From Candidatus Poribacteria bacterium (lineage in GTDB: Bacteria > Poribacteria > WGA-4E > WGA-3G), in NCBI GenBank assembly GCA_022822085.1, contig JAJECK010000015.1, positions 25,782 through 89,781 of the forward strand: DNA of 64,000 nt. The letters run 5' to 3'. Below, piece by piece: positions 13,339 through 61,626 of this stretch (position 1 is the first letter of the stretch; the number at the start of each line of letters is the position of its first letter). The notes beneath the pieces were generated by a model. That model saw nothing but the letters and a program-made list of their open reading frames with translations, did not search any database and had not been told where the DNA came from. A program made the position numbers and the translations under genes.

Positions 13339-14025
13339 ATGTATTTTCGATTGAGTTTTTTGCCGTTATTTTTCTGTACAATATTATTCGTTGCCGGTTG
13401 TCATATTCTAATAACAGAACAGGAATGGAGCGACAACTATGCTTTATTGGAAGGCACACTTTCAACAAATCCTGAAATGATTGATGGTGATATTAAAACT
13501 GTTGGTGAAACAAGATCCTCCACAGGTCCGGGAAGACTTTACGGTTCAAGTAATGCAACAGAAGTTATTGTGACTTTACCAGAAAAGAAACTCATACGTA
13601 GGATAGTTATCCATTCTGATAATATCAATAAATTTGCCATATATGCTGATAGAGGAGGCACTTTACATTCAGACACGGATTGGCAATTGGTTAAGGAAGT
13701 TAAAATGGTGAAATCTTTACCAGTAGTTGTCCCGTATATGGATACAATACCAACTGCACGGTTTCGAATTGTTGTCTTAGACACAAAGGACGATGCTACA
13801 CTGGCACGACAAGCAAAAGCAGACTTGATCACTGAAATGGATAGATTTGATAGAGAACAGGAAAATTACAGATATAGCGATCGAGGAACTCGATTTCGTA
13901 CACGCTATCCAGCAAGAATTAGCGAAATTGAGTTTTATGGATATAAATCTGCAGAAGAAACAGCAACAATAAAATCAGATCCGAAACCAAAACATGAAAC
14001 TGAACTTGATCTGATTTTGCAGTAG
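13339..14025 (+). CDS. Hypothetical lipoprotein
   Basis: It has a lipoprotein signal peptide (LFFCTILFVAGC). An RBS (aggaga) lies upstream. Confidence 0.45.
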   Translation: MYFRLSFLPLFFCTILFVAGCHILITEQEWSDNYALLEGTLSTNPEMIDGDIKTVGETRSSTGPGRLYGSSNATEVIVTLPEKKLIRRIVIHSDNINKFAIYADRGGTLHSDTDWQLVKEVKMVKSLPVVVPYMDTIPTARFRIVVLDTKDDATLARQAKADLITEMDRFDREQENYRYSDRGTRFRTRYPARISEIEFYGYKSAEETATIKSDPKPKHETELDLILQ

Positions 14026-14193
14026 AATTTACATTCATAGTATACTCCATATTCAATATCTTGTTGAACAAAGAATGGTGTGGTCTAATACCACACCATT
14101 TTACTATTAATCACGACTTGTGCTAAATAACCGTATGTAAAATATCATTTCACATAAGCAGGATTTTTGTCCGTGTTTTCATTTGTCCATAGG

Positions 14194-14690
14194 TTCTTTA
14201 GTCCCGTAGGGACGATATGTTTATAGTAGCACGTGCTATCCCTATGCTCTTAGTCCTGTCCGAAAATTAAAAAATAATTTAGGTCCTGTGGCGAGGTTAG
14301 GAAGAAATCAACGGGACCAATGCCATTTAGGCATTCCCCGCCTCGCCAGCAGGAGTACAACTGCCCTCACCCAGAAGGAAAAGATCATAAGTTAATCTTC
14401 ATCCAGTTTGCGCTCTTTGACGCACAAACTGGAAGTTTATGCTACAGACACACAAGGTTCCCCTCCTTCTGCTGGCGTGGTTTCCTAACCTCGCCACAGG
14501 ACCCGATTAAATTCTTAATCTTCATTAGAGACTATGTTTATAGCAAAACGTTGAACACAAGTTCTTTAGTCCCGTAGGGACGATATCTGTGTGCCAATGA
14601 AATAATTTTAATTAACATATCGTCCCTACGGGACTAAAGAGGTTTGAGTGACGTTTTTCTATAAACATATCGTCCCTACGGGACTGAAGA
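14194..14690. repeat. Cluster of four copies of a 30-bp interspersed repeat (CTTTAGTCCCGTmGGGACGATATGTTTATAG), including an inverted pair
   Basis: Copies lie at 14194-14226 and 14561-14590 in direct orientation, and at 14613-14640 and 14658-14690 in reverse complement. The same ~30-mer recurs at 29817, 33441, 44166/44213, 56316, 56606 and 62603/62651. The region also holds a copy of the tggcgaggttagga..cctcgcca palindrome (14290-14350, 14455-14500). Confidence 0.75.
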
Positions 14691-14827
14691 AGGACACTCA
14701 AAATCAAAATTCCTTAAGTTGACACCCGCTGAATGCCAAAAAGGCATTCATAGCGTTGATTTACGGGTTTCGTTCCTCAACCCAACGGACAAATTTGTTT
14801 TGTACAAAAACTTACATACCCCCATTT

Positions 14828-14868
14828 TCAAACACTCTTGACATTATCAGATGATTTTGGTATCATAT
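14828..14868 (+). promoter_or_regulatory. Sigma70-like promoter for the 14905 gene
   Basis: TTGACA-17 nt-TATCAT (cttgacattatcagatgattttggtatcat) lies about 40 nt upstream of an RBS (aggtaagg). Confidence 0.4.
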
Positions 14869-16866: not shown

Positions 16867-17712
16867 ATGCAACAAACAAGTACGAAACAGGTCGTCCGTT
16901 GGAATCTGTCTGAAACAACACAGATAGAAGATGAATTGGTTATTGAAGAACCGCTTGAAATTCGGGTAGGACAGCAGAGTCTTATTGTAGTCATGCGGAC
17001 ACCTGGGCATGATTTTGAACTCGCTGCTGGATTTCTATTTACAGAAAACCTAATTCAATCAGAAGACGACATTGAAATCATTGCCTATTGTGAAGATGAC
17101 AACACAGAATCAGATACTGATAATCTATACACTGGCAGGTCATCATTTCAGAACATTTTAAATGTTCATCTAAAGGATAAGTTGGTACTTGAAGAGGCAG
17201 GATGGCAACGAAATTTCCATGCAAATGCAAGCTGCGGACTCTGTGGGAAAATGACGATTGATTCGGTTAAACATCAAGTAGACCCGTTAGAGCTCGGTGG
17301 ACGATTAAATCATAATGTGTTATATCAACTGAATAATCAACTTAGGGCAGCACAAACTGTCTTTGATAAAACAGGTGGATTACACGCAGCAGGACTTTTC
17401 AATGAGATGGGTGAACCCCTAATTATCAGAGAGGATATCGGTAGACACAATGCAGTTGATAAAGTTATTGGACAAGCATTACTATCAGATATGATTCCGT
17501 TAGATAATCACATTCTGATGGTAAGCGGTCGTGCAAGTTTTGAGATAGTTCAGAAAGCACTTTTTGCCCGTATTCCTATTGTTGTCGCAGTATCCGCAGC
17601 TTCTACACTTGCAGTTGATTTAGCTGAAGAAGGAAACATTACTTTAATAGGTTTTATGCGAGATAAACGCATGGCAGTTTACTGCCATCCTAAGCGAATA
17701 CATAACGAATAG
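16867..17712 (+). CDS. fdhD: Formate dehydrogenase accessory sulfurtransferase FdhD
   Basis: Conserved FdhD motifs are present: ASCGLCGK (active-site Cys), TGGLHAAGLF and VSGRASFEIVQKA. Its length of 281 aa is typical. Confidence 0.8.
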   Translation: MQQTSTKQVVRWNLSETTQIEDELVIEEPLEIRVGQQSLIVVMRTPGHDFELAAGFLFTENLIQSEDDIEIIAYCEDDNTESDTDNLYTGRSSFQNILNVHLKDKLVLEEAGWQRNFHANASCGLCGKMTIDSVKHQVDPLELGGRLNHNVLYQLNNQLRAAQTVFDKTGGLHAAGLFNEMGEPLIIREDIGRHNAVDKVIGQALLSDMIPLDNHILMVSGRASFEIVQKALFARIPIVVAVSAASTLAVDLAEEGNITLIGFMRDKRMAVYCHPKRIHNE

Positions 17713-21885: not shown

Positions 21886-23883
21886 ATGAAAACAACAATT
21901 CCCATAATCACATTTATTCTTGTATTAGTAGGACACGCTTCTCTTGTTTTTGCACAAGATAACACACAAGTTGGTCTACCTGATGGTGCTATTGCGCGAC
22001 TTGGTAAAGGCGGGATCAACATAATGCGATTCTCACCAGATGGCAGCAAACTGGCAGTGGGTACGGATGTCGGAGTGTGGCTTTACGATGTGTCAGATGG
22101 AAATGCAACTGCCCTGTTCACAGATAAACCTGGTCAGGTCAACGCACTTGCATTTTCAAGTGATGAAAAAATACTTGCAAGTGGTGGACACGGAAACCCA
22201 TTCATACAACTGTGGAGCTTGGAGAACGGTACTAAACATTCTACACTGTTTTTTAAAAGCGAATTTAGATATGTTGTTGCCTTGGGATTTATTGGTAATA
22301 CACTTATAAGTTATGATAATAGTGGGAGAATTATTTATTGGAATATAAGCAATGGTGATATTTTAACAGAATTGGAAAAGGTGAATCCAAACCAAGCAGT
22401 TACATTTTCACCTACTACTAATCTTATTGCTGTAGCAGATAATTTACACAAAATACATATATATGATACTTCCTTAAGTGATAAGCATATTGTGTTTCAT
22501 GATGATGGATTAGATGAATTAAAAAAGGATATTTTTGCCTTAGCAATTACATCAAATAACAAAAAACTTGTAAGTGGCAGTGAGGACAAAGCAATTAGAA
22601 TTTGGGATATTGAAAAAAGGAAACTAACAACTTCTCTTAATGTCCATAAATCCACAATCACTTCTGTTGCCATATCACCTGATGACAAAATCCTTGCAAG
22701 TGGAGATGCCAGCAAAGAAATCATCCTTTGGGATGTTGATAATCCTAAAGAACTTAGGACATTATTAGGACACAAAAACACCGTTACTGCATTAGCATTC
22801 TCACCTGATGGTGCTGGCAAATATAGTGGTTGTCTTGCAAGTGGTAGCCATGATGGTACGATCCGGTTTTGGAACCCTGACACAGGTGAGAAACTTGTTA
22901 CTTTTGCTACGGGACATGCCAAATGGATTAAAACTATCGCCTTTTCTGAGAACGGGTCAACACTTGTGAGTGCTAACATGACTGGGAATGCAGTTGTTTG
23001 GAGTTTGAATAGCTATCAAGAAATTGGTAGTTTTACAAATGGAGAAAGCGACTATGCGGCTACAGTTGGATTCACCTCTGATGCTAAGCATTTTGTCTGT
23101 CAGGGGTTAAACGGATGGCAGTTTACGTTTAAGCCTTACGGTTTTGGGTATACCTCAAAAGACGGTGAAAATTATGAAGCACTTCCCCTAAGAATGTGGG
23201 ACATAACCACTCGTGAAGAAGTACAAGGTCCTTGGAATGAAAATTCATGTGATATACTTACATTTTCTGCTGATAACAAAATACTTGCTATCTATGGATC
23301 AGATAATGTATTGGGATGGAACATTGATTCTGCAGAAGAATTGTTTGATCTATCAACTGAGGATATATGGTTCATTGAACACATGGTAATATCGTCTGAC
23401 AATAAATACCTTGCTGTGTATGAATCCTCTGAGAAACTGTATATATGGAATTTAGAAAAACCAGAGGATCCGCCTGTCCAAACTAAATCGGATATTGACT
23501 CGTTGGCATTCTCTCCAGATGGTAATAGTATAGCAATATTGAGGAGTGGGAATATTTTCCTTCATGATATAGAGTCGTTCCCAGATGGTGAACCTGAAGA
23601 AATTCTTACAGACCTACACGGTCATGTAGCAAGAATGATCTTTTCTCCCGATAGTAAAATCCTGATATGCGCTGGATTTTCTGGTGTTATATCAAAAATT
23701 AGTATAAAGTTGTTGGATATGGAAACAGGTCAAGAAATTGGAAACCTTTCAGGACACTCGGAACTGATAGAGACACTCGCATTTTCTCATGATGGGAAAA
23801 TACTTGCCAGTGGCAGTTTTGATGGGACAATATTGCTATGGGATTGGGAAAAAATATCTAAAAGACAAGAAATGGTCAAATAG
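21886..23883 (+). CDS. Secreted WD40-repeat beta-propeller protein (paralog 1)
   Basis: It has a signal peptide. Multiple WD40 units have LASGS.D..I..W motifs. The N-terminal QVGLPDGAIARLGKGGIN block is shared with paralogs at 24393 and 44359. Confidence 0.75.
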   Translation: MKTTIPIITFILVLVGHASLVFAQDNTQVGLPDGAIARLGKGGINIMRFSPDGSKLAVGTDVGVWLYDVSDGNATALFTDKPGQVNALAFSSDEKILASGGHGNPFIQLWSLENGTKHSTLFFKSEFRYVVALGFIGNTLISYDNSGRIIYWNISNGDILTELEKVNPNQAVTFSPTTNLIAVADNLHKIHIYDTSLSDKHIVFHDDGLDELKKDIFALAITSNNKKLVSGSEDKAIRIWDIEKRKLTTSLNVHKSTITSVAISPDDKILASGDASKEIILWDVDNPKELRTLLGHKNTVTALAFSPDGAGKYSGCLASGSHDGTIRFWNPDTGEKLVTFATGHAKWIKTIAFSENGSTLVSANMTGNAVVWSLNSYQEIGSFTNGESDYAATVGFTSDAKHFVCQGLNGWQFTFKPYGFGYTSKDGENYEALPLRMWDITTREEVQGPWNENSCDILTFSADNKILAIYGSDNVLGWNIDSAEELFDLSTEDIWFIEHMVISSDNKYLAVYESSEKLYIWNLEKPEDPPVQTKSDIDSLAFSPDGNSIAILRSGNIFLHDIESFPDGEPEEILTDLHGHVARMIFSPDSKILICAGFSGVISKISIKLLDMETGQEIGNLSGHSELIETLAFSHDGKILASGSFDGTILLWDWEKISKRQEMVK

Positions 23884-24215: not shown

Positions 24216-24392
24216 TGTGAAGACTCATCTATTTATTGAAGGCCGACGTTAATAAAAATTTAAAGCGACTATTTCCTTACTTAGTAGGTTCCTGTTGGAT
24301 TTCAGCAAACATCTATTCCAAATAGATTGAACTCCTGCATCATACCATATAAAATATTAGTAACACATAACATTTCAAATAAAATATCAACC

Positions 24393-26402
24393 ATGAAAAC
24401 ATCGTATTCTTTTTTCACCTTTATTCCTGTGTTAGTAGCAATAGTATCATCTGTTTTGGCAAGAGACAACACACAAGTTGGTCTACCTGATGGTGCTATT
24501 GCACGTCTTGGTAAAGGCGGAATCAATATAATGCAATTCTCACCTGATGGCAGCAAACTGGCAGTGGGAACAGATGTTAGTGTATGGCTATACGATGTGC
24601 CTGATGGAAATGCAACTGCTTTGTTCTCAGATAGTCCAGCGCAGGTTAACGCTCTTGCTTTTTCGAATGATGGAAAAATACTTGCAAGCGGAGGATATGG
24701 AAATCCTACCATACAACTGTGGAATTTGGAGGATGATACACTCCATTCTGACTTTATTCTTACAAGTAAGTCCAATTATGTAAATGCCCTTGTTTTTCAA
24801 GGGCAAATGCTCATTAGCTATGATAGAGTGGGTAACGTATCACGTTGGAATACCGATACTGGAATTATTTCTTCAGAATTGGTGAAAATACCAGCATTTC
24901 CAGCAATATTCTCACAAACAGGTAAAATTCTAACGGCTACAGACAGTTTAGGAAGAATTCACATATATGATACAATTACAAAAGAGAAATATTCAATACT
25001 TGCAGATGTTGAACTAAAAAAAGAATTGCAGTGTTTGAGTATAGCACCTAACGGTAAAACAATTGCATGCGGAGGCAGGGATAATATAATTAGATTATTG
25101 GAAATCGATAATGACAATAAGGTCCAATCATTAATTGGCCAAACAGCAGGAATAATTTCCATTGCTTTCTCCACTGATGGCAAAATTCTTGCAAGTGGTG
25201 ATTCAAATAAAGAAATTACAATCTGGGATGCTGAGAATACCAAGAAACTTAGAAAAATAAGTGGACACACAGGCACTGTAAATGCATTAGCATTTTCACC
25301 TGATGGGGCAGGTAAATATAGCGGTTGTCTTGCCAGTGGTAGCCTTGATGGAACAATCCGATTTTGGAATCCTAACACAGGTGAGGAACTTGTCAGCTTT
25401 GCTACAGGACATACGAAATGGATTAAAACTATCGCCTTTTCTGAGAACGGGTCAACACTTGTGAGTGCTAACATGACTGGAAATGTAGATGTGTGGAGTT
25501 TAAATGGTTATCAAGAAATAGCTACATTCGCGGATGGTGAATGTGATTATGCAGCTTCAGTTGCATTTACCAATGATGCTAAGTATTTTGTCTGCCAAGG
25601 GCTTAACGGCTATACGGTTACATTTGACTCCTACGGTTTTGGATATAAAACAAGAAGAAGTGATAATCTTGAAATACTACCTGTGCAAATGTGGGACATA
25701 ACCACTGGTGAAGAACATTACGGTCCTTGGAATAAGACATCAGGTAATTTATTGGCATTTTCACACGACAATAAAAATCTTGCCATCTATGGTTCTAAAA
25801 TATTGTTGGTTTGGAACACAGAAACTAAAGATGAATTGTTCAATACTGACACTGAGAAAATGTTTCGCATTGATGAGATGGTTTTCTCATCTGACAATAA
25901 AATGATTGCTTTATATGAAACATCAAGGAATGCTAAAATTTGGGATTTAGATAAACCAGATGAGCCATATATTCAAACCAAACATACAACAGATGCATTA
26001 GGGTTCTCTCCATGTGGAAGGTTTTTCGCTACATTAAAAGTAGGTGGTTTTTCATATCCTAAACCGGGAAAAATATTTATTCATATTTTAGATAGGTTTC
26101 CTGATGGCGAACCAATAGAAATTAGTGCCAATATCCACGGTTTTGAAAATAGATTAATCTTTTCTCCTGATAGCAAAACAATTGTTTGGGCAGGGACGTT
26201 AAATATGAGATCAAATGTTCGCATAAAATTATGGGATGTGGAAACTGGTGAAGAAATAAGAACATTATCTGGGCACACTGAACCTATAGAATCGCTTGCA
26301 TTTTCTCATGATGGGAAAATACTTGCCAGTGGCAGTTTTGATGGGACAATATTGCTATGGGATTGGGAAAAAATATCTAAAAGACAAGAAATGGTAAAAT
26401 AG
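24393..26402 (+). CDS. Secreted WD40-repeat beta-propeller protein (paralog 2, tandem duplicate)
   Basis: Architecture matches 21886..23883. The last ~130 nt, including the stop and ~25 nt of 3' flank, are nearly identical to paralog 1. A 50-nt internal block is identical (25430-25490 vs 22930-22990). The ATG at 24393 with a signal peptide is preferred over the tracker start at 24327. Confidence 0.75.
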   Translation: MKTSYSFFTFIPVLVAIVSSVLARDNTQVGLPDGAIARLGKGGINIMQFSPDGSKLAVGTDVSVWLYDVPDGNATALFSDSPAQVNALAFSNDGKILASGGYGNPTIQLWNLEDDTLHSDFILTSKSNYVNALVFQGQMLISYDRVGNVSRWNTDTGIISSELVKIPAFPAIFSQTGKILTATDSLGRIHIYDTITKEKYSILADVELKKELQCLSIAPNGKTIACGGRDNIIRLLEIDNDNKVQSLIGQTAGIISIAFSTDGKILASGDSNKEITIWDAENTKKLRKISGHTGTVNALAFSPDGAGKYSGCLASGSLDGTIRFWNPNTGEELVSFATGHTKWIKTIAFSENGSTLVSANMTGNVDVWSLNGYQEIATFADGECDYAASVAFTNDAKYFVCQGLNGYTVTFDSYGFGYKTRRSDNLEILPVQMWDITTGEEHYGPWNKTSGNLLAFSHDNKNLAIYGSKILLVWNTETKDELFNTDTEKMFRIDEMVFSSDNKMIALYETSRNAKIWDLDKPDEPYIQTKHTTDALGFSPCGRFFATLKVGGFSYPKPGKIFIHILDRFPDGEPIEISANIHGFENRLIFSPDSKTIVWAGTLNMRSNVRIKLWDVETGEEIRTLSGHTEPIESLAFSHDGKILASGSFDGTILLWDWEKISKRQEMVK

Positions 26403-26408
26403 AAAGGC

Positions 26409-26651
26409 TCAATAGATAATACATGCCCCACCGACACAGACACTTCCTGCTTTCTGCGTAACATCCCCTGCTACACTGTTTTCTTCTCCTGTTTCAAATT
26501 CTGAAATTAGAGATTCAGTTCTCTCAGTAGGTTTAGTAAGATTTATCTGTAAAGAGCCGTTTGTAGTCAGAGTAAATGTGCAGCCAGAGAATAGTATAGA
26601 AAATAAAAATACACACAGTAGTGTGATAGTAGGTATGTATTTGGATTTCAC
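26409..26651 (-). CDS. Small hypothetical lipoprotein
   Basis: It has a lipoprotein signal (LCVFLFSILFSGC). It is the last gene of the minus-strand selenoprotein cluster. The short length makes the call tentative. Confidence 0.3.
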   Translation of the reverse strand: MKSKYIPTITLLCVFLFSILFSGCTFTLTTNGSLQINLTKPTERTESLISEFETGEENSVAGDVTQKAGSVCVGGACIIY

Positions 26652-26655
26652 TAAA

Positions 26656-27768
26656 TTATACCTCTATTTTTTGAAGGTTCACTTGGTCAAGCGAGTTATT
26701 TCCTAATTCAAGTCCACTTGCTGATGTAATATGGTTTGCATATTTAGACATAGAACTTAATCCCATCTCCTCGCGTTTCTGATTGACAGTTTGAAGGATT
26801 AATACATCAAGGATAACCGGATCAGCACTTACAAACATTCCGCCAAATTGCCATGCACTTTCTGCGTGGTATGTCGGTCCGTGGTCAAACGAAGCCAACA
26901 ACCCATCAACGATATTCAGAACGACCTTATCCTTTATCACCTTATTTTCATAAATCTCGGCGATAGCAGGATTGCAGTAGAGCGGTCTGCCGTGGAATCT
27001 CCTCGTATTATCCACACTACCAAAAGCCATGTTCTTCAAACATCCGCTAACACCAGACATATCGTGATGCTTCAAGACAGGGACATTAATAACAACATCC
27101 ACCATTTCAGTAATGATACGAGAATAAAGGGAGCGAGTGCTTTCGTTTTCACGTCTTGTGATACTGTCCTTTTCGGTTTCATAGAAAACTTTATCGTCAT
27201 AACCTATGTCTTGTAAATTGGAAGCTAATGTTCGGACATCTCCTTCCTCGGTTCTAATAGGGAATCCTGCACTCAATAGGTGGTCTTCAAACCGGTCCCA
27301 AATGATAATTTGCTTTCTGAGAACACCTGCACTAAATAAAGCATCTACAATTTTATTTACAATGACAGAATGCGTGCTTAACTTTGGGCCAGCAAGTGGA
27401 TTGACTTTTATGCCTACTATATGATCAGGCAAAACAAAGTCTCTCCATGCTTCTTTTGCTGTTTCACGACCGGTAAGTTTAACCATAGCCTGATCCAGCA
27501 TATACGCTACAGCCTCTTCATTAAGTCTATCATCTTCCCACACCTGTTTCCCAAGAACTTCTACGACAGGAGTTAAATTCTCTTTCTGTGTTGGAGGTGT
27601 GAGAACCCGTCCCCCGATTTGTGCAATAGCGGGAAGTGTGGATAGTGCAGCACCACTAACAACCCCAATCGTCGTGAGGAATTCACGACGATTGAACTTG
27701 TTTCGTTGGGACACTGTCTCTTCACAGTCTGACAAGATGTTCGCTATAACCTTATCGTGAGGCTTCAT
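26656..27768 (-). CDS. Tat-signal periplasmic protein, DUF362-like
   Basis: It has a twin-arginine signal (NRREFLTTIGVVSGAALSTLPAIAQ). It is 370 aa. Its ATG overlaps the TAA of the upstream selenoprotein gene by 1 nt (TAATG), implying translational coupling. The family assignment is from memory of overall features and is low confidence. Confidence 0.45.
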   Translation of the reverse strand: MKPHDKVIANILSDCEETVSQRNKFNRREFLTTIGVVSGAALSTLPAIAQIGGRVLTPPTQKENLTPVVEVLGKQVWEDDRLNEEAVAYMLDQAMVKLTGRETAKEAWRDFVLPDHIVGIKVNPLAGPKLSTHSVIVNKIVDALFSAGVLRKQIIIWDRFEDHLLSAGFPIRTEEGDVRTLASNLQDIGYDDKVFYETEKDSITRRENESTRSLYSRIITEMVDVVINVPVLKHHDMSGVSGCLKNMAFGSVDNTRRFHGRPLYCNPAIAEIYENKVIKDKVVLNIVDGLLASFDHGPTYHAESAWQFGGMFVSADPVILDVLILQTVNQKREEMGLSSMSKYANHITSASGLELGNNSLDQVNLQKIEV

Positions 27769-28370
27769 TAGAGTTTACCTAATTCTGATAGGATGGTTGC
27801 AGTAGGTACACGTGAAGCAAAAGAATCTAACGACTTCCATGCAACTGTCCCATCCTGAGCAATAATATACGCTGATGGTCTTGCTATTGTTTCGTCAGTT
27901 TGATCAAGGACATTATATGCGTTAATTACATCTTTGTTAGTGTCTGCAAGTACGGGATACGTGAGTCCTTCTTTCTCAGTAGTGTTCTTTGTAAGACTTA
28001 CATTTTCAGAACTTATTGCGAATAGTTCTGTCCCAGTGTCTTTTATGTTTTCGTAATTTTGTTGCAACTCAACGAGTTGCGAGGTGCAAAGTCCTCAGCC
28101 GCCTGTTCGGTAGAAAACGATTACTACATTTTTTCCATTATCAAGATGTTCGGATAGTGTGTGTAAATTCTCAAACCCATCAGACAGTTCAAAATCTGGA
28201 GCATGTGTGCCAATCACTAAACCCTCACCTAATTCAGTTTCGGATTCGGTTATAGGCGTTGTCACTGTTTCTGTATCTTTAGTTTCATTTATCGGATCAT
28301 CTGATGTCCCACAACCAAATACGCCTATAAGTAACAATGCTAATGTAAGGAAAGTTAATTTTTTATTCAT
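27768..28370 (-). CDS. Selenoprotein: TlpA/ResA-like thiol:disulfide oxidoreductase lipoprotein (thioredoxin fold, redoxin family) with a UxxC active site. The Sec codon is the TGA at 28095-28097.
   Basis: Two tracker ORFs (28095..28451 and 27768..28067) share a frame and are separated only by TGA. Read-through gives ...VVIVFYRTGG-U-GLCTSQLVELQQNYENIK... U aligns with the first Cys of the WCxPC/CxxC motif of TlpA/ResA/Prx-like proteins. Downstream similarity to ResA (..YPVLADTNKDVINAYNV) supports this. A lipoprotein signal (LLLIGVFGCG) starts at the ATG at 28370, with an RBS (aaaggaa). A hairpin sits 14 nt 3' of the UGA. Confidence 0.7.
28064..28080 (-). promoter_or_regulatory. Putative bacterial SECIS stem-loop for selenoprotein 1
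   Basis: The mRNA reads GCAACUC-GUU-GAGUUGC, a 7-bp perfect stem with a G/U loop. It starts 14 nt after the UGA and lies within the codons for SQLVELQ. Confidence 0.6.
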
Positions 28371-28439
28371 ATCATGTATTCCTTTCAAGGATTTTAGTAA
28401 TCCTTGCCTTAATATTTTAACGTGAGTTTGATAATAAAA

Positions 28440-28545
28440 TCCAATAACCACGTAGGTTGGGTTGAGGAACGAAACCCAACATGGAGTGATCTAAAGTGAG
28501 TAAAGATGTTGGGTTCCGTTCCTCAACCCAACGGACACAGACTTA
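28440..28545. repeat. Hairpin-forming REP/MITE-like repeat (same family as 8961-9048) between selenoprotein genes 1 and 2
   Basis: The inverted repeat is acgtaggttgggttgaggaacgaaacccaacat...atgttgggttccgttcctcaacccaacggac. Confidence 0.7.
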
Positions 28546-28575
28546 TGTTTAGAATTATCAAACTCACATTAGGAG

Positions 28576-29706
28576 TTACCAAAGCTTACTCAACTCCTTC
28601 ATAATTCGTGTTGTTGGTACTCGTTTGTCAAATGTATCTATTGATTTCCATACGACTGTGCCATCAGATTCAAGAAGAAATGTAGACGGATTGAGTGCAC
28701 CTGTATCTACTGGAACTTCTACATTGAAAGGTTTGACTGCATCAAGGTTTGTATCAGAAAGGACAGGAAATTCAAGATTTTCTCTATTGACTGTTATTCT
28801 TGTTGCTGGTACATCTTGTATACTAATAGCAAATATTTCAGCATTATCTGCTTTTATTCTATCATAATTATCTTGCAACTCACCGAGTTGCGTTACGCAT
28901 GCAGCTCAGGCACCACCTATGTAAAAGACGACGATAGCATTTTTCCCTTCATCAAGTGTATCGTAAAGTGAATGTAGTTTTCCATTCCCATCAGGCAACT
29001 CAAATTCTGGTGCTTTAGAAAATATTGGTAAACCTTCCCCTGGTTCCTCGGGTTCAACTTCTCTATCACCGATCCCAATTGGTGATAACTTTACATTTAA
29101 TTTCTCAGTCTCATTTGCATCTAAAGGCTTCACTGAGAGATCGTAGACTTCATAATCGGCAGCTTCTATTGTCAAGGTAAACTTCTGTTGAGTCGGAAGA
29201 TTATCAAAATTGAAGATACCCTCATCGGAGGTAATAGTCTCGTCCTGTTTTCCATCTTGATCAGTAAGTTGTACGCGTATCTCAGGTAGTCGTATTCCAG
29301 TTCTGTTGTTCCGAACAAGTCCTATAATATGTGAAACAGGATATGACAATTCTTCAAGTGTGATAGTATCCAACGTAACTGTTTCACCAGCAATAACATT
29401 CACGTTGAATTCCATCTCCTGAAATCCTCGTGCTGAAATACGTAACGTGTAATTTCCTGCTTCAATTTTTCTGAGTGTGAAACCTCCAGTACTTTCCATC
29501 TGCGCGACAACTTTACCGTCTTTTAATAAACGGACCTTGATTGTCCCATCAACGTTTGGTTGTACTTTACCGTGTATAACACCAGTTGTGGTCTCTATTT
29601 CCGGTATTTCACTGACAGGATTTTCTACTGTCTCACATCCAAAGGCAGTTAGGAGTAGTAAGGGAATTGTGAGGAATGTAAATAATCGTCTCATTTTTTT
29701 CTCCAA
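28576..29706 (-). CDS. Selenoprotein: CarboxypepD_reg-like domain + TlpA/ResA-like thioredoxin-fold lipoprotein with a UxxC site. The Sec codon is the TGA at 28906-28908.
   Basis: Tracker ORFs 28906..29706 and 28576..28878 are in frame across a single TGA. The read-through is ...NAIVVFYIGGA-U-AACVTQLGELQDNYDRIK... It has a lipoprotein signal (LLLLTAFGC). The N-terminal ~150 aa resemble a carboxypeptidase-regulatory-like beta-sandwich (GVIHGKV...G.YTLRISARGF). A hairpin sits 14 nt after the UGA. Confidence 0.7.
28875..28891 (-). promoter_or_regulatory. Putative bacterial SECIS stem-loop for selenoprotein 2
   Basis: The mRNA reads GCAACUC-GGU-GAGUUGC, starting 14 nt after the UGA and lying within the TQLGELQ codons. 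Confidence 0.6.
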
Positions 29707-30107
29707 TTGTATATTAATTATTAATATAGTAACGTCTTATGCTAAATAATTATTTGTAAAACATTGTTATACATAAAGAGGAGGATTTGACCGTATATCT
29801 TTGCTTTGGATGATCTTTAGTCCCATCCGGACGATATGTTTATATGTTAAATCCATTTTATGCGAATACAATACAAACAAATAGTTAACTGACACAAGTC
29901 GTTATAGTAAATTTATTTTATCGAGTTACATTTGACATAGTTCAATTTAAGTGATTTATAGCAGTTTTTAGAATTGATTGGACATTAGGGAATTGTCGGA
30001 GGGAACTCCGATTCCCAACTATCATTGAGTTAAGTCTCGATTCGGAGACCGCTCCTACAGAATATGAAAAGTCATGAAAATAAAACACAACATCAATACA
30101 TCTCACA

Positions 30108-31214
30108 TTATAACTTCCCTAACTGGTCAATAATATCTTCATTTGGAACACGATGCCCTAAACGTTCATCAAGGAATGTCCATGCCACTATACCATTCCG
30201 ATTTAGTATAAAAGTGGCAGGACGTGCGATATGTTTGTTGTTTGGATCAACGACATTATAATCGGCGATCATCTTCTTTTCACTATCAGCGAGTACAGTG
30301 AACTTTAGTCCTTCTTTATCAACTGTTTGCTTTGATGAAGCCACGGTATCAGAACTAATTGCTATGAGTTCTGCACCTTTAGCTTTGATTTTTGCGTAGT
30401 CATCTTGCAACTCTCCGAGTTGCGAAACACAGAAAGGTCACCACCCTCCACGATAAAAGACTATGACTAACTTGGTGTCTCCGATAAATTCATCAAGCGA
30501 ACGTACTTGGTTGTTGCTGTCTGACAGTTCAAACCCTGGAGCTTGACTGCAGTCGATTAGTCCATTACCCGGATCTAAATCCACATTTTCACGAATCATT
30601 GATGTAAGTTTTACATCTATTTCAAAAGTGTTGCCAGCTTCAATTGCATCCACTGTTTGATCATACATCTCGTAACAAGTATGGGTGATTGATAGTGTGA
30701 AAGCATTATCAGCAGGTAGATTTTCAAAAATAAAGGTTCCGTCATCAGAAGTCAAGGTTTCATATTCTTGACCCGATGTTTCTGTAAGTTTAATTAGGAT
30801 ATTGGATAACGGATTGCCTGTTTCTTCATCAGTTAATTGACCATTCAAATGTGCAATAGGTTCTTCTAATGGTGAGAGTGTTACTTTATCAAGCACATAA
30901 GTTTCACCTGCAACAATATCGACTTTAAGTTCTGTTGTTTCATAACCTTTTGCGGATATTTCTACAGTATATTCGCCCTTTTCTATCTCACCCAGATCAT
31001 AATTTCCTACAGAATCAGCTTGTGCGATGAGTTGACCATCTTTCAGAAGACGAACATGAATTGTAACTCCTTCGATCTCTTCAACCTGTACCTGAAGTTT
31101 ACCTGATTCTAACTGAACTTCGTCAATTTTATCAATCGGATCTTCAGTTGATCCACAATTCAGTCCAACCAATATTAACAAAGCCAATGCAATGAGTGCC
31201 ATTGTCTGTTTCAT
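30108..31214 (-). CDS. Selenoprotein: CarboxypepD_reg-like domain + TlpA/ResA-like thioredoxin-fold lipoprotein with a W-U-P-F-C site. The Sec codon is the TGA at 30438-30440.
   Basis: Tracker ORFs 30438..31271 and 30108..30410 are in frame across a single TGA. The read-through is ...KLVIVFYRGGW-U-PFCVSQLGELQDDYAKIK... WUPFC mirrors the thioredoxin WCGPC motif. The probable start is the ATG at 31214 (MKQTMALIALALLILVGLNC lipoprotein signal) with an RBS (aaggaaa). A hairpin sits 14 nt after the UGA. Confidence 0.7.
30407..30423 (-). promoter_or_regulatory. Putative bacterial SECIS stem-loop for selenoprotein 3
   Basis: The mRNA reads GCAACUC-GGA-GAGUUGC, starting 14 nt after the UGA. The flanking uuuc/aaga can extend the stem with one mismatch. 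Confidence 0.6.
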
Positions 31215-31288
31215 GATTATATGTTTCCTTAATCTTATCTTTACTTCACTGTTTTTCAATACCTTCGCCAATAATTAACGGACTTCCA

Positions 31289-31362
31289 GATTGTGCATAT
31301 TGTAGCACATTCATCCTTGATTGTGCATATTATAGCACATTCATCCTTGATTGTGCATATAA
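31289..31362. repeat. Tandem direct repeat, 30-bp unit x ~2.5 (gattgtgcatattgtagcacattcatcctt)
   Basis: Exact tandem copies lie immediately upstream of the selenoprotein-3 start. The unit shares the cttccagattgtgca motif with the composite repeat element at 24040. Confidence 0.7.
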
Positions 31363-31625: not shown

Positions 31626-32432
31626 CTAATGGGACGCACGTTGTTTAATAGTTCCCCAAGTCGTGGTCAATTTATCTTGTGCTTCAACAGAAGTTATATT
31701 CACAAGACCGTCAGACATAATAGAATTTATATCGTCTTCAGTCAAGGCGACGTTATAGAGTGCAACTTCATCAATGATCCCATTTGTATATCGGTCAAAA
31801 TGTCTTCCGATATGAAACACACCTTCAGCCGTTCCGTATCCATCATCGGTATTGAAATCGACTGCAGCTTCCATTTTGCCATCAATCCAAATAGATGCTT
31901 TACCGGTATCGGTATTCGCTACACCAGCAACAAAATGCCAATTGTCATCACCAATTTCTGTTGTGCTCTGAGGTCTGAAACTGGTATTACCACTATCGCG
32001 TAAGAAGAAAGTTACCTTGTTATCGCCACCACCGTTCCAAATCATGTACCACGGTGTTGCTTGAGATTTATCTTCATAATTCTTTCCTGCAAGTGAACCA
32101 CCGACCTTCGTTCCTTTGAAATGTGCAGTGAGAGAAAAGGATGTTCCAGACTCAAATGCTACGGTATCGGAATGTGCAACTTCAACCCAATCGTCTGTTC
32201 CATCAAATTGAAGTGCTTTCCCAAATTTTCCATCAACCCAGGTTGCCCCGTGTATTTGACCTTCATTATCTTGACTTGATGAATCACCTGCTACTGTGCC
32301 TGCACCTTCATCAAAAAGCCATAATCCAGTGATATTCTCATATCCATATTCAGCAAAACTTGGATATGCTATTAGTAAAGCGAGACCTATAAACAAAGTT
32401 AACGTAAATCCAAAATATTTCATATTGTCCAT
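31626..32432 (-). CDS. Secreted LamG/concanavalin-A-like lectin-fold protein carrying the conserved C-terminal tail
   Basis: It has a signal peptide (FTLTLFIGLALLIAYPSFA). It is a paralog of 32441..33238 (shared WLFDEGAG..DSS..N.G...GA.WVDG.FGKAL.F.GTDDWVEV.HSDTV.F..GTSFS...H.KG). It ends ...VEAQDKLTTTWGTIKQRASH. Confidence 0.6.
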   Translation of the reverse strand: MDNMKYFGFTLTLFIGLALLIAYPSFAEYGYENITGLWLFDEGAGTVAGDSSSQDNEGQIHGATWVDGKFGKALQFDGTDDWVEVAHSDTVAFESGTSFSLTAHFKGTKVGGSLAGKNYEDKSQATPWYMIWNGGGDNKVTFFLRDSGNTSFRPQSTTEIGDDNWHFVAGVANTDTGKASIWIDGKMEAAVDFNTDDGYGTAEGVFHIGRHFDRYTNGIIDEVALYNVALTEDDINSIMSDGLVNITSVEAQDKLTTTWGTIKQRASH

Positions 32433-32440
32433 ATCCTTTC

Positions 32441-33238
32441 TTATTGTAATTGTCGTTTAATCTTACCCCATGTTGTTGTAAGTTTACCAACAGCAGCGAC
32501 TGCTGCTGCTTCTTCCAAACCATTATTCATAATCGTATCCATTTCATCTTCACTCAAGGCAACATTAAATAGTCCAACATCATCAATGATTCCTTTAGTA
32601 TAACGGTCAAAGTGCCTTGCGATGTGAAAGACACTATCATTCGTACCGTAACCTTCAGAAACATCTAATGTGTCTTCCTGATTCTTTTTACCATCTATCC
32701 ACAAGGATATTTTTTTTGCATCTGCATCTGCAACTGCAGCGATAAAATGCCATTTTTCATCTGAGACAGGCACGGTACTATCTATTTTTGAATTCTTATC
32801 TGCTGAGGTGCGAAGATAGAAAGAAACATTTTGGTCTTGACCACCGTTCCAAAGCAGATACCAAGGTTTGACCTGTGATGTATCTTCATAGCCTTTGCCA
32901 ACAAGTGAACCTCCTACTGCTGAACCTTTGTAATGAAGTGTAATAGAAAAGGAAGTTCCCTTCTTAAACCCAACAGTATCTGAATGTTGAACTTCTACCC
33001 ACCCATCAGTACCATTAAATTCAAGTGCTTTGCCAAATTGACCGTCTACCCATTTTGCTCCGCCTATAACTTTTCCATCATTGCCATTACCAGATGAATC
33101 ATTTGCTTTATCACCGTTCCCTTCGTTAAAAAGCCACATCCCCATAATGTTGTCTGCATTTAAGGCAGCTTGTGACGGAAGGATAAGGAAACAGAATGTA
33201 ATTAGACAGAGTACAAAAATAAATAATATTCTCATCAA
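32441..33238 (-). CDS. Secreted LamG/concanavalin-A-like lectin-fold protein carrying the conserved C-terminal tail
   Basis: It has a signal peptide. It is paralogous to the downstream gene. It ends ...AAVGKLTTTWGKIKRQLQ. Confidence 0.6.
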   Translation of the reverse strand: MMRILFIFVLCLITFCFLILPSQAALNADNIMGMWLFNEGNGDKANDSSGNGNDGKVIGGAKWVDGQFGKALEFNGTDGWVEVQHSDTVGFKKGTSFSITLHYKGSAVGGSLVGKGYEDTSQVKPWYLLWNGGQDQNVSFYLRTSADKNSKIDSTVPVSDEKWHFIAAVADADAKKISLWIDGKKNQEDTLDVSEGYGTNDSVFHIARHFDRYTKGIIDDVGLFNVALSEDEMDTIMNNGLEEAAAVAAVGKLTTTWGKIKRQLQ

Positions 33239-44358: not shown

Positions 44359-46431
44359 TTAAGGGTTTAACTTCTGTTTGATAGATTCCCAATCCCACAG
44401 GATGACAGTACCATCTCTACTTGCAGTGGCTAAAGTCTTTCTATCTGGAAAGAACGCTAAATCGTTGACCAAATCGGTATGTCCTTTGAGGATATTCGAG
44501 ACGTTGAATGTACGTGTTTCCCGCACTTGTATTGTCCCGTTAGATCCACCACTAACAATGCTTGTATCATCAGGAGAAAACCGTAGACATCTACAGACTT
44601 CATTAGTACGACCTGAAGATATTCGCTCACCTGATGACACATCCCAGATATAAATTTCATCATAACTCATACTTGCCAATGTTTTTCCACTTGGTGAGAA
44701 TACTAACCTACGTATTGCATTTTTCTGTCCAGTTAGTGTAAGCCGTTTAGTCCCCTTTTCTATGTCCCAAAGGTGAATTATCTTGTCTTTGCCACCACTC
44801 GCTAATAGGTCTCCATTCGGTGATAGTGCCAATGTACTAAGAGAACCTGTAGAGCCATTAAGAGTGTAGACCGGTGCTATCGTCTTGACATTAGTCAACA
44901 GTCTTTTCAATATAGGTTTTGTCTGGATCGGAATGTTCCATATATGAAACTTACCGATTTGTTCATTCTGAGTTGCAGTTGCTAATCTATTCCCTACATT
45001 AGAGAATACAAAAGTTGGTATCTTATATGGGGGAACTTCAATCCCAGTTATAGTCAATCTCTTCCTTTTTTCGGAGGTGTCCCACAGTTCATAAGTATTT
45101 TCAGGACTCCAATCCTTTATTACAACATACTTTGCATCTGATGAAATTGCAAGAGGGGTTTCCCAGTTGAAGAAAGTTCCTGTCAAGTGATGGCCGACAT
45201 TGGTGTCCCAATTCTGTATTTGATAATTCATAAAATGCCCAGTTATTAGAGCATTATTCTCCTCCGAAATGGCTAAATTAACGACTTCTGATGCATGTCC
45301 CGAACAAGCAAGTTGCTGTCGACCAGTGTTAGCATCCCAAACCCGAATTGTACCATCTTTGCTGCCTGTAAGAAGTCTATTTCCATCAGGTGAATATGTT
45401 ATGTCTGAGATTGTGTATTTATGTCGAGTGAGTCTTTGCTTGGGAAAGAAACGTCTTATTTTTCCAAGCCAACCTTGTTGTTTTGCTGTGGCATCCCATA
45501 GATATATACTCCCATCGTGCCCACCACTAACAAGGGTTTTGCCATTCGGTGAAAATGCAAGCGCGGAAAAACTTATAGGTGCTTTGAACGATACCTGTGA
45601 TTCCTGTGTATCCATATTCCATAACTTGATAGTCCGAAAGTTATCACCACTTGCAAGTGTCTTACTATCTGGCGAAAAAGCTAAGGATTGAATAGACCGT
45701 TCATGTCCCGATAGTGTGAACAGAAGCTTAGAATTAGCCGTGTCCCATAAATGGATTGGAGTTTTTCTCTTTGAGCGGTGTTTTGACACTGCTAAGGCAA
45801 GAAAGCGTCCATCAGGTGAAAGTCCAATTACTGGACTATGTGTATCCTCAAAATCGAAATTTATACTCTTTATTTCGATCGGTTTTGGTGCTGACCGTTC
45901 ATTAAAACGCAAATGGACTATTTTATTCTGCGCCCTGCTTACACCTACCATCTCAGGACGATCTGCAGATAAGAGAACTGATGAATACTTGCTTTTTTCA
46001 ATAACAATAATGGTTTGGAGTTCACCAGTATCTGCATCCCATTGTACTATCTTTCCTCCTGAAACTGCTCCAATCAGTGTACTGCCATCCACTGAAAACA
46101 TTACTCCCTTAACATTCTGTCTATCTCCTTTTAATAGTGAAATCTCTGTTCCAGTCTTTGCATCATACATCCAGATGCCAATCGTGGTTGCCACTGCAAA
46201 CCAATTACCGTCGGGTGAAAATTTGATGTCATTTATACTGCCTTTACCTAAACGTGCTTTTGCACCTTCAGGTAACTGCCATCGGGAGTAGTTTACATTT
46301 GATGTAGGGAATGTCAATTCTATTGTATCACGATTCATCAACCTTCTGACGAATAATATCGAAGCAAGAACTGCAAGTATAGATATAAGAATCACTATGA
46401 GTATAGCAAAAGAGCGACGAGATAATTTCAT
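44359..46431 (-). CDS. Secreted WD40-repeat beta-propeller protein (paralog 3)
   Basis: It has an N-terminal TM/signal. WQLPEGAKARLGKGSINDIKFSPDGNWFAVATTIGIWMYDAKTG parallels the N-termini of paralogs 1 and 2. Many WD40 units are present (LASGS.D.TI.LWD). Confidence 0.7.
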   Translation of the reverse strand: MKLSRRSFAILIVILISILAVLASILFVRRLMNRDTIELTFPTSNVNYSRWQLPEGAKARLGKGSINDIKFSPDGNWFAVATTIGIWMYDAKTGTEISLLKGDRQNVKGVMFSVDGSTLIGAVSGGKIVQWDADTGELQTIIVIEKSKYSSVLLSADRPEMVGVSRAQNKIVHLRFNERSAPKPIEIKSINFDFEDTHSPVIGLSPDGRFLALAVSKHRSKRKTPIHLWDTANSKLLFTLSGHERSIQSLAFSPDSKTLASGDNFRTIKLWNMDTQESQVSFKAPISFSALAFSPNGKTLVSGGHDGSIYLWDATAKQQGWLGKIRRFFPKQRLTRHKYTISDITYSPDGNRLLTGSKDGTIRVWDANTGRQQLACSGHASEVVNLAISEENNALITGHFMNYQIQNWDTNVGHHLTGTFFNWETPLAISSDAKYVVIKDWSPENTYELWDTSEKRKRLTITGIEVPPYKIPTFVFSNVGNRLATATQNEQIGKFHIWNIPIQTKPILKRLLTNVKTIAPVYTLNGSTGSLSTLALSPNGDLLASGGKDKIIHLWDIEKGTKRLTLTGQKNAIRRLVFSPSGKTLASMSYDEIYIWDVSSGERISSGRTNEVCRCLRFSPDDTSIVSGGSNGTIQVRETRTFNVSNILKGHTDLVNDLAFFPDRKTLATASRDGTVILWDWESIKQKLNP

Positions 46432-60877: not shown

Positions 60878-61547
60878 ATGGCTGCTATCCGTATTTTCAT
60901 CAGTAGTGTCCAAAATGAATTTGCTCAAGAACGCAAAGCAATGCGCGACTATTTGCTGAACGATGCATTGCTCAGTAGATTCTTTGATGTGTTTCTATTT
61001 GAGGACGTTCCTGCATCTACATTGTATCTGGATGAACTAACACAATCCGAACTCTATGTGGGGATTTTCTAATTTAACATTGGAGCAATTAAGGGTTGCG
61101 CACACGTCAATTCCTACTAATCCACTGCTTGCTGAACCTTTATACCTTGTAAAGTACATTGAACGGATGGGAACAGGAACATTAGACATGATACGCCGTT
61201 GCGGGGATGCAGGATTGCCTGAACCCGAATTTGACGATAGTAGTGGATTTAAGGTGACGATATGGCGTGCCAATCCAAAAGGGCAGCCAGAGACGCAAGC
61301 ACATAACTTAACATCAAAGGCACTCAATCTAATTGCAGACGGACCGAGGCAGAAATCAGAATTGTCTAAAAGTTTAGGACAGAAACGGATATCGGGGCGA
61401 CTCAACAAAGTTGTCCAACACCTGCTGAGTGATGAGATGATTGAATATACACTGCCAGATAAACCGACGAGTCGCCTGCAGAAATATCGCTTGACAGAAA
61501 AGGGAAGAACTGAACTATTGAATATGAAATCAATGAAAGAGGATTAA
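60878..61547 (+). pseudogene. Remnant of a DUF4062 + ATPase + HATPase_c_4 (RecG-C-terminal-like / Schlafen-AlbA-type) gene, internally deleted or frameshifted
   Basis: ORF 60878..61072 encodes a DUF4062-like N-terminus (MAAIRIFISSVQNEFAQERKAMRDYL). The overlapping out-of-frame ORF 61056..61547 encodes the typical C-terminal ...YIERMGTGTLDMIRRCGDAGLPEPEFDD.. block. The central ATPase portion is absent. Confidence 0.4.
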
Positions 61548-61626
61548 GTTAACCCGAGTTTGCTAATAAAAAACAGTAACCACTGTCCGTTAGGAACCCA
61601 CCTACAATATAAAATATGGAGAATTT

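Follow-up and report, generated by a model that had tools for sequence, protein, structure and literature searches.

Does a gene that is interrupted by a stop codon at its own active site give two fragments, a ruined protein or a single selenoprotein? This question is raised by a locus on a contig of a Candidatus Poribacteria bacterium (NCBI GenBank assembly GCA_022822085.1, contig JAJECK010000015.1). We analysed 64,000 nucleotides of this contig, from position 25,782 to 89,781 of the forward strand; this whole stretch is called the window, and positions are given within it. Three consecutive minus-strand genes, named g1, g2 and g3 here, are each divided by an in-frame TGA inside a redoxin domain. 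An earlier reading of the letters, made without database searches (the original prediction), had proposed that they are three tandem selenoprotein genes in which TGA encodes selenocysteine (Sec; U in the one-letter code). Our analysis leads to the same view. These are very probably real selenoprotein genes, and their products would most likely act as anchored extracytoplasmic selenol/thiol-disulfide oxidoreductases.

Gene structure and in-frame TGA codons

Three pairs of open reading frames (ORFs) lie on the minus strand from 27768 to 31271, as seen from the ORF list and the read-through translation. The members of each pair share one frame with one stop between them, and in the DNA read directly this stop is TGA in 3/3 cases. 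When read through, the three tandem genes span 27768-31214 with a single internal stop each, in agreement with the original prediction. The gene nearest to the end of the array, g1 (27768-28370), would encode a selenoprotein of 200 residues in which a predicted lipoprotein signal (VFGC) is followed by a short linker rich in T and E and then by a redoxin domain (active site G-U-G-L-C); its Sec codon lies at 28095-28097 in the context ...VFYRTGG-TGA-GLCTSQLVELQ. For g2 (28576-29694; 372 residues), the read-through protein starts with a predicted lipoprotein signal (AFGC) and continues with two CarboxypepD_reg domains and a redoxin domain whose active site is A-U-A-A-C, and the TGA is found at 28906-28908 (...VFYIGGA-TGA-AACVTQLGELQ). 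The product of g3 (30108-31214; 368 residues) has a signal peptide with a conserved Cys20 (GLNC), two CarboxypepD_reg beta-sandwiches and a PRX-like redoxin domain with the active site W-U-P-F-C, with the TGA at 30438-30440 (...VFYRGGW-TGA-PFCVSQLGELQ).

The likely starts are MNKK at 28370 for g1, MRRL at 29694 for g2 and MKQT at 31214 for g3. Those of g2 and g3 match database gene calls. The start of g1 was chosen from the signal peptide, and both gene callers begin this ORF further upstream (118 and 116 residues). The three proteins are about 40% identical to one another. An independent assembly, the Logan assembly of run SRR16351678, is identical to the window across 26366-28447, and the TGA of g1 is included in this span, as the original prediction would have it.

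Conservation of the TGA in Poribacteria

We scanned genomes for further members of this family and obtained 112 members in 78 loci from different Candidatus Poribacteria species, closed chromosomes included. TGA stands at the site in 112/112 members, and TGC or TGT in none. In every member, the frame after the TGA runs for 109-111 codons to a real stop and the xxC of the active site is kept. All relatives found belong to Candidatus Poribacteria.

In the databases, these genes appear in a different form. The 105 best homologues (clusters) all stop at ...FYRGGW, and public annotations, in all cases seen here, give an N-terminal fragment named 'hypothetical' or 'redoxin domain-containing' together with a 100-residue AhpC-TSA fragment. 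The only seemingly full-length entry (P0106, with W at the site) is a TGA translated with another genetic code. The original prediction had named a uniform stop with two separate genes among the homologues as evidence that would count against it. Such a pattern is present formally, in the output of gene callers alone, but the frame, the domain and the tail of 109-111 codons always continue, as is characteristic of Sec. A corrected annotation would fix 1-4 genes in each Poribacteria genome.

Copies of the g1 type and of the g3 type occur together in many species. Since the paralogues are only about 40% identical and these two types co-occur so widely, the in-frame TGA must have outlived old duplications, and the argument that a TGA shared by paralogues speaks against a pseudogene or a sequencing error is borne out by the three genes and by all 112 homologues. 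The three-gene array itself is limited to the subclade of the window; elsewhere there are two genes (g3-type and g1-type) or one (g3-type).

A separate observation concerns the region upstream of g3-type genes. In L033, L036, L037, L050, L054 and L078, the in-frame region just before the g3-type start has 2-4 tandem units of 12 residues (...SVQLANRKLAIQ...), which points to a putative repeated 36-nt element in the 5' region.

A bSECIS-like hairpin after each TGA

Each UGA is followed by a hairpin that resembles the bacterial selenocysteine insertion sequence (bSECIS). The hairpin, G-CAACUC-GNN-GAGUUG-C, begins 14 nt after the UGA and is 17 nt long with a 7-bp stem. It is located at 28064-28080 in g1 (GCAACUC-GUU-GAGUUGC), at 28875-28891 in g2 (GCAACUC-GGU-GAGUUGC) and at 30407-30423 in g3 (GCAACUC-GGA-GAGUUGC, coding (S)QLGELQ), all on the minus strand. 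Its core, CAACTCNNNGAGTTG, has three copies in the window, all at these sites, against 0.09 expected, and among the fetched loci it is restricted to these redoxin genes. The published bSECIS model describes a loop of 3-9 nt, a stem of 4-16 bp, a G in the first two loop positions, a distance of 16-37 nt from UGA to loop and a minimum free energy of at most -7.5 kcal/mol (PMC13188914). With a 3-nt loop, a 7-bp stem, 21 nt from UGA to loop and -7.7 kcal/mol, the window hairpins lie within these constraints, and the bSECIS search on the minus strand that had been recommended with the original prediction was successful after all three UGA codons.

The hairpin codes Q-L-x-E-L-Q, and its codons are fixed much more strongly than the codon usage elsewhere in the same genes would predict. 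Codon +7 is CTC (Leu) in 112/112 members versus 19% of Leu elsewhere in the same genes, codon +9 is GAG (Glu) in 112/112 versus 25% of Glu, and codon +10 is TTG (Leu) in 112/112 versus 20% of Leu. The loop is G[G/U]N in 111/112 members, and both the protein and the RNA sequence are conserved over the 9 codons that separate the TGA from the supposed restart. Across the family, 97% of stem cells are paired, with five AU-to-GU changes and one GC-to-CG swap. Because such a near-invariant stem leaves little covariation, the case for the hairpin rests on synonymous-site conservation. In practice, the DNA signature TGA-N14-GCAACTCNNNGAGTTGC finds these genes.

Domains, fold and active site

The Pfam search was run on the read-through proteins with U replaced by C. 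AhpC-TSA (PF00578) was matched by g1, g2 and g3 with 99, 82 and 104 bits, respectively (cut-off 26; E-values 2.5e-28, 3.8e-23 and 5.7e-30), and Redoxin was also matched. The AhpC-TSA match crosses the TGA unbroken in all three genes, so that the comparison with Redoxin/AhpC-TSA profiles proposed earlier supports the read-through. CarboxypepD_reg (PF13620) was matched by g2 with 72 bits and by g3 with 76 bits (gathering cut-off 32.3), and not by g1 in this search. The N-terminal CarboxypepD_reg domain predicted for copies 2 and 3 is present, but as two stretches in each protein and not as one.

In a hidden Markov model alignment with ResA (4nmu), the TGA falls on the first Cys of CxxC; in 14 Cys-bearing 'peroxiredoxin-like family' homologues (P0107-P0120), its counterpart is the first Cys of WCPYC. 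The second Cys of the motif is kept in g1 (U-GL-C), g2 (U-AA-C) and g3 (U-PF-C), and the claim that the TGA replaces the first Cys of a WCxPC-type motif while the second is retained is confirmed by these alignments. This retained Cys aligns with the peroxidatic Cys of the BCP thiol peroxidase 2cx3, which is also the best PDB sequence match. In the alignment to 2cx3, the peroxiredoxin (Prx) motif P-x-x-x-T/S-x-x-C is not kept: Pro is changed to Arg, Thr/Ser to Sec, and the peroxidatic Cys alone remains. A cis-Pro-like loop, R-P-(A/S)-T/Y-F, is present as in ResA.

Homologue P0106 was modelled with AlphaFold2 (AF2) in place of the window proteins, and its redoxin domain reached a predicted local distance difference test score (pLDDT) above 90. 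In this model, strand 97-103 precedes the site and helix 109-127 follows it. This is where proteins of the thioredoxin fold classically carry their nucleophile, at the N-terminus of helix alpha-1. Foldseek found BCP/AhpE peroxiredoxins and ResA equally near, with template modelling (TM) scores of 0.82-0.91 (ResA 0.82-0.87). None of the NCBIfam models reached its cut-off (ResA NF002854 55-56/170, BCP 51/140, SelL-related NF040769 36-45/120, PrxU 24-40/270), and the AhpC and PrxQ models were also far below theirs. Judged by alignment and model, the catalytic domain is a thioredoxin-fold PRX-like redoxin with a predicted Sec at the nucleophilic first position of U-x-x-C. The label TlpA/ResA-like, used in the original prediction, is right in that UxxC aligns with the ResA CxxC; on the other hand, the AhpC-TSA/PRX-like profile fits best, the score for the ResA model stays below its cut-off and the fold is equally near to BCP/AhpE.

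Sec machinery and the meaning of UGA

In the window, 13 of 58 long ORFs end in TGA, and an in-frame continuation after it was found only for two selenoprotein fragments and one shadow ORF. Since TGA also ends ordinary genes of the window, UGA is not reassigned in this genome. The true terminator of the redoxin genes themselves is TGA in 57/112 family members.

The machinery for decoding UGA as Sec was found in related Poribacteria. In locus L083, a further paralogue is followed by lepB, the gene for SelB (TIGR00475, 354 bits versus a cut-off of 242) and tRNA-Sec(UCA). This locus shares a metagenome-assembled genome with L011, where the three-gene array of the window is found again at 74% identity, and the order redoxin-lepB-selB-tRNA-Sec is repeated in two TARA contigs (L089 and L090). 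More than 120 protein clusters of Poribacteria contain SelB. Matching lengths (4780840, 5426982, 5507996, 5076652 and 6349053) suggest that several of these clusters are on the same chromosome as a redoxin locus, and the genomes concerned include one with an orthologue, 86% identical, of the DUF362 protein encoded next to the array in the window. SelA, SelB and SelD COGs have been listed for two Poribacteria bins and for Poribacteria WGA-3G (Slaby et al. 2017; PMC5649159 Table S4), and the WGA-3G contig ASZN01000014 is our locus L055, which carries the TGA gene. A 2026 paper reports Sec-containing hydrogenases in Poribacteria. For the window itself, the Rfam gathering scan and ARAGORN gave no RNA family and no tRNA, and the SelB of its own sample, sought via cluster members, was matched in other samples only (TARA, SRR23175291).

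The selB-linked paralogue has its own features. It was found in L083 (9332-15130), L089 (3029-7867), L090 (2469-6632) and L088, with the active-site context FYRGGW-U-PYC or FYRYRH-U-PNC and with N-terminal Ig-like (Big_5-type) repeats. In several Poribacteria contigs, it lies directly upstream of lepB-selB-tRNA-Sec-lipA-dapB. In L083, a putative transposase-like ORF (13535-14854) lies between selB and tRNA-Sec. The window also has an FdhD/NarQ-family gene on the plus strand (16867-17712); no gene for a formate dehydrogenase lies close to it in the window.

Export signals

Lipoproteins were called with the PROSITE-type lipobox rule {DERK}(6)-[LIVMFWSTAG](2)-[LIVMFYSTAGCQ]-[AGS]-C, with the Cys at 15-35 and K/R near the N-terminus. 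The N-termini of g1, g2 and g3 all begin with basic residues, continue with a hydrophobic stretch and contain a conserved Cys, and the rule fits g1 (VFGC) and g2 (AFGC). Across the family (n=112), 61 members fit strictly, 31 fit with N at position -1 and 20 are unclear, although most of these 20 look similar; the lipobox-type Cys is at least 90% conserved. Because each of the three proteins has an N-terminal signal with this conserved Cys, the Sec translocon probably exports them, and a lipid anchor would then hold them outside the cytoplasm.

Genomic module and neighbouring genes

The Sec-containing redoxins (U-redoxins) are part of a conserved gene order. In 72-75 of the 78 loci, one or more LamG proteins, 1-3 U-redoxins, a DUF362 protein and an 80-residue lipoprotein follow each other. 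In the window, the DUF362 (PF04015) gene (26656-27768, minus strand) encodes a protein that carries the twin-arginine signal NRREFL and in which two Cys, C243 and C265, are invariant. Its ATG is overlapped by one base by the stop TAA of g1, and the gene is translationally coupled to the last redoxin gene. The DUF362 gene directly follows the last U-redoxin gene in 73-74 of the 78 Poribacteria loci, and 73/73 orthologues have the twin-arginine motif and exactly two invariant Cys. DUF362 and the N-terminal domain of LarA (nickel-pincer) belong to the same Pfam clan. A PDB sequence search with the DUF362 protein gave nothing significant, and AF2, given a shallow alignment, modelled it poorly (pLDDT 48.5). 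We consider this protein a candidate redox partner or substrate of the U-redoxins. The codons of its twin-arginine motif (NRREFLTTIG) contain a 13-bp perfect inverted repeat (27666-27694), which is also found in the closest relatives L008, L011 and L012. We regard it as incidental and not as a functional element, since unlike the bSECIS-like hairpin it is not conserved across the phylum.

The 80-residue lipoprotein (26409-26651, minus strand) has the lipobox FSGC and ends with ...GSVCVGGACIIY. Its C-terminus, GDVTQKAGSVC-x-GG-x-C-I-I-Y, is nearly invariant in 72/73 loci, and the protein has no Pfam or NCBIfam match. The tail looks like a carrier or substrate peptide, or like a metal-binding tail.

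Immediately upstream of the array, two genes encode secreted proteins with Laminin_G_3 (LamG) domains (31626-32432 and 32441-33238, minus strand), and this position is kept in 75 loci. Between them and g3 lies a 30-bp tandem repeat (31289-31360; 2.4 copies, 97% match), each unit of which has a promoter-like TGCACA-17-TA(T/C)AAT on the minus strand. It is possible that the repeat is a promoter or operator of the array. A scan of the locus for promoters and terminators gave counts at chance level, promoter-like sites included.

Further away in the window, two adjacent DarT-domain genes (PF14487; 37515-39451, plus strand), the second fused to a weak Macro match, form a DarT/DarG-like pair of DNA ADP-ribosyltransferase toxin and antitoxin. 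Three WD40 beta-propeller proteins of about 665-690 residues (21886-23883 and 24327-26402 on the plus strand, 44359-46431 on the minus strand) have very many eukaryote-type WD40 Pfam matches and are typical eukaryote-like repeat proteins of sponge symbionts. At 61056-62553 (plus strand), a phage-type integrase comes after a Fic-like/HATPase_c_4 gene and may mark the border of a mobile element.

Proposed function and rival explanations

The sequences show directly how the genes are built, their homology and synteny, the Cys/Sec pairing and the conserved TGA and hairpin. Sec insertion itself, the lipid anchor, the substrate and the course of the electrons are inferred. SelB with Sec-tRNA(Sec) would bind the 17-nt hairpin that starts 14 nt past each UGA, and Sec would be inserted at the UGA to give full-length proteins of 200, 372 and 368 residues. 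These would be exported by the Sec translocon and then lipid-anchored outside the cytoplasm, where the two CarboxypepD_reg beta-sandwiches of g2 and g3 may serve as a stalk or as a binding module. The U-x-x-C centre would cycle via a selenenylsulfide in the manner of a ResA/TlpA-type oxidoreductase. Its targets may be the co-encoded exported partners, namely the DUF362 protein, the CxGGxC lipoprotein and possibly the LamG proteins.

Several points weigh against this reading. The proposed function is derived solely from fold, motif and synteny, and the presumed Sec insertion from sequence. The search for selA, selB, selD and tRNA-Sec, which had been recommended with the original prediction, gave none in the window or in the 10 kb on either side along its 107-kb scaffold (ENA assembly ERZ23491298), and the machinery was seen in relatives only, as selB and tRNA-Sec of related Poribacteria genomes. 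Covariation in the hairpin is minimal, with one compensatory pair, 5/7 pairs that never vary and a shuffle control of 51/500. The lipobox of g3 (GLNC) fits the rule only when N is allowed at position -1; of the lipoprotein signals predicted for all three proteins, those of g1 and g2 agree with the rule and that of g3 is non-canonical. An electron donor of the CcdA/DsbD type was not seen in the operon, although no search was aimed at one. Finally, peroxidase activity keeps a modest share of the probability, because BCP has its peroxidatic Cys at the position of the second Cys.

With this activity, which is the chief rival as to function, the genes would be selenoproteins as above, and their products would be extracytoplasmic Prx-like peroxidases that clear H2O2 or organic hydroperoxides at the cell surface. 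The loss of P-x-x-x-T/S-x-x-C, in which Pro has become Arg and the Thr/Ser position is Sec, makes us regard such a role as rather unlikely, even though AhpC-TSA is the best Pfam family (82-104 bits), BCP 2cx3 is the best PDB sequence match with its peroxidatic Cys aligned to the second Cys of the motif, BCP and AhpE are among the top folds, and a Sec peroxiredoxin of the PrxU type is an experimentally verified family. In addition, no peroxiredoxin NCBIfam model was reached (BCP 51/140, PrxU 24-40/270), a thioredoxin-type U-x-x-C stands together with the R-P-(A/S)-T/Y-F cis-Pro-like loop as in ResA, and the close coupling to exported Cys-bearing proteins suggests protein substrates. We therefore prefer thiol-disulfide oxidoreductases to peroxidases as the likely function.

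The remaining explanations deny that the UGA is a regular Sec codon. If it were mainly a true stop, the products would be truncated beta-sandwich lipoproteins with or without a separate C-terminal protein of 100 residues, or Sec would be only an occasional selenium-dependent by-product. Two ORFs are indeed annotated everywhere, a TTG/M start lies 9 codons past each TGA, and Sec insertion in bacteria is, as is generally known, never fully efficient. However, the break cuts one thioredoxin-fold domain in two at its active site, where strand beta gives way to helix alpha-1, so that neither half could fold alone, and a truncated g1, which has no beta-sandwich, would consist of a linker and a quarter of a domain. 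The frame, the tail of 109-111 codons and the xxC are kept in 112/112 members, and the 9 codons up to the supposed restart are conserved as protein and as RNA; we give a true stop very little chance. Sequencing or assembly errors, or recent pseudogenising mutations, are still harder to accept and can be practically dismissed, because the same codon occurs at the same site in three paralogues of 40% identity, in an independent assembly (g1) and in 112 genes from 78 species-level genomes, among them closed chromosomes. Equally negligible is a reading of every UGA as a standard amino acid without selenium (Trp or Gly, genetic codes 4 and 25). Entry P0106 has W at the site, but its codon is TGA and the W stems from the code chosen by the gene caller; moreover, 13/58 long ORFs of the window end in TGA, 57/112 members terminate with TGA at a conserved length, the site aligns with a catalytic Cys, and the phylum possesses a dedicated SelB and a tRNA-Sec(UCA). 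We reject the pseudogene, the sequencing error, the reassignment of UGA and the two-gene readings.

Selenoprotein genes as the explanation would mean that a widespread sponge-associated phylum keeps Sec, without Cys alternatives, in surface-anchored redoxins that are coupled to an uncharacterised Tat-exported DUF362 protein. The array thus offers a testable way into the function of DUF362 and into the reason for the retention of the Sec machinery, while it leaves the knowledge of Sec decoding and of Sec-using folds unchanged. A more speculative proposal, for which we would claim only a minor likelihood, is that the U-redoxins are the catalytic core of an as yet undescribed, Poribacteria-wide surface redox system with a strict need for selenium. 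It would comprise one or more LamG proteins, 1-3 redoxins that are lipid-anchored and carried on beta-sandwich stalks, a Tat-exported DUF362 enzyme and the 80-residue lipoprotein with its invariant C-x-G-G-x-C-I-I-Y as carrier or substrate, and Sec decoding would be kept largely for this family.

Comparison with known systems

The Prx-like thiol:disulfide oxidoreductase selenoproteins are reportedly to be attributed to Kryukov and Gladyshev in 2004. The UxxC 'Prx-like thiol:disulfide oxidoreductase' (PF00578) is listed as a high-confidence family of predicted prokaryotic selenoproteins, and the catalytic kind of our proteins is therefore already known. Under the name 'Prx-like 1', used in the selenoproteomes of the Global Ocean Sampling (GOS) and of the Sargasso Sea, it ranks with the most abundant families of the GOS data, and Prx-like selenoproteins fused to other domains have also been described there. 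By its domain and motif, the array belongs under this predicted family. Both have the same Pfam domain, a U-x-x-C with Sec first, many Cys homologues and a bSECIS right after the UGA. On the other hand, the Poribacteria proteins are of an exported lipoprotein type, two of them are fused to two CarboxypepD_reg domains, and the selB-linked paralogue is fused to Big_5-like repeats. They also stand in tandem arrays of 1-3 within a fixed LamG/DUF362/CxGGxC-lipoprotein module, and no Cys form was found in the phylum among the 112 members. Our literature search found no description of a lipoprotein/CarboxypepD_reg selenoprotein fusion, of a tandem array or of a phylum-wide Sec-only distribution, nor of a family-specific invariant SECIS, of the LamG/DUF362/CxGGxC module or of a paralogue linked to selB and tRNA-Sec. 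Accordingly, the statement that an array fused to CarboxypepD_reg is an unnamed system is right for the fusion, the array and the operon, but not for UxxC Prx-like redoxins, which are an already listed family.

The closest Cys homologues are proteins of PRX_like2, or 'peroxiredoxin-like family protein', which we take to be CDD cd02970. They are 28-34% identical, share the context FYRGGW-C-P-x-C, and their first Cys aligns with U. They differ in the use of Cys, in being mostly cytoplasmic single-domain proteins and in having about 20 extra residues ahead of the cis-Pro loop. The Sec form listed for cd02970 is UxxS, whereas that of Poribacteria is UxxC. SelL and SelL-related proteins (NF040769) are likewise Prx-like thioredoxin-fold selenoproteins of aquatic organisms with a U-x-x-U/C centre, and there is a weak profile match; however, it amounts to 36-45 bits versus 120, and the Poribacteria proteins have a single Sec and another architecture. 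BCP/PrxQ/AhpE and PrxU share the AhpC-TSA superfamily and the fold, and the second Cys of UxxC aligns with their peroxidatic Cys. In PrxU, Sec replaces this peroxidatic Cys (TxxU), whereas the Sec of Poribacteria lies three residues upstream of that position.

ResA/TlpA/CcmG differ in that the Poribacteria proteins have Sec, a lipid anchor and a beta-sandwich stalk instead of Cys and a transmembrane helix, that a context of cytochrome-c maturation or copper proteins is absent in Poribacteria, and that the ResA profile gives 55/170. They have in common a membrane-tethered extracytoplasmic thioredoxin fold, the tether being predicted in our case, a CxxC that aligns exactly with UxxC, and a TM score of 0.82-0.87. 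By analogy, we consider ResA/TlpA/CcmG the best model for how the U-redoxins of Poribacteria may work.

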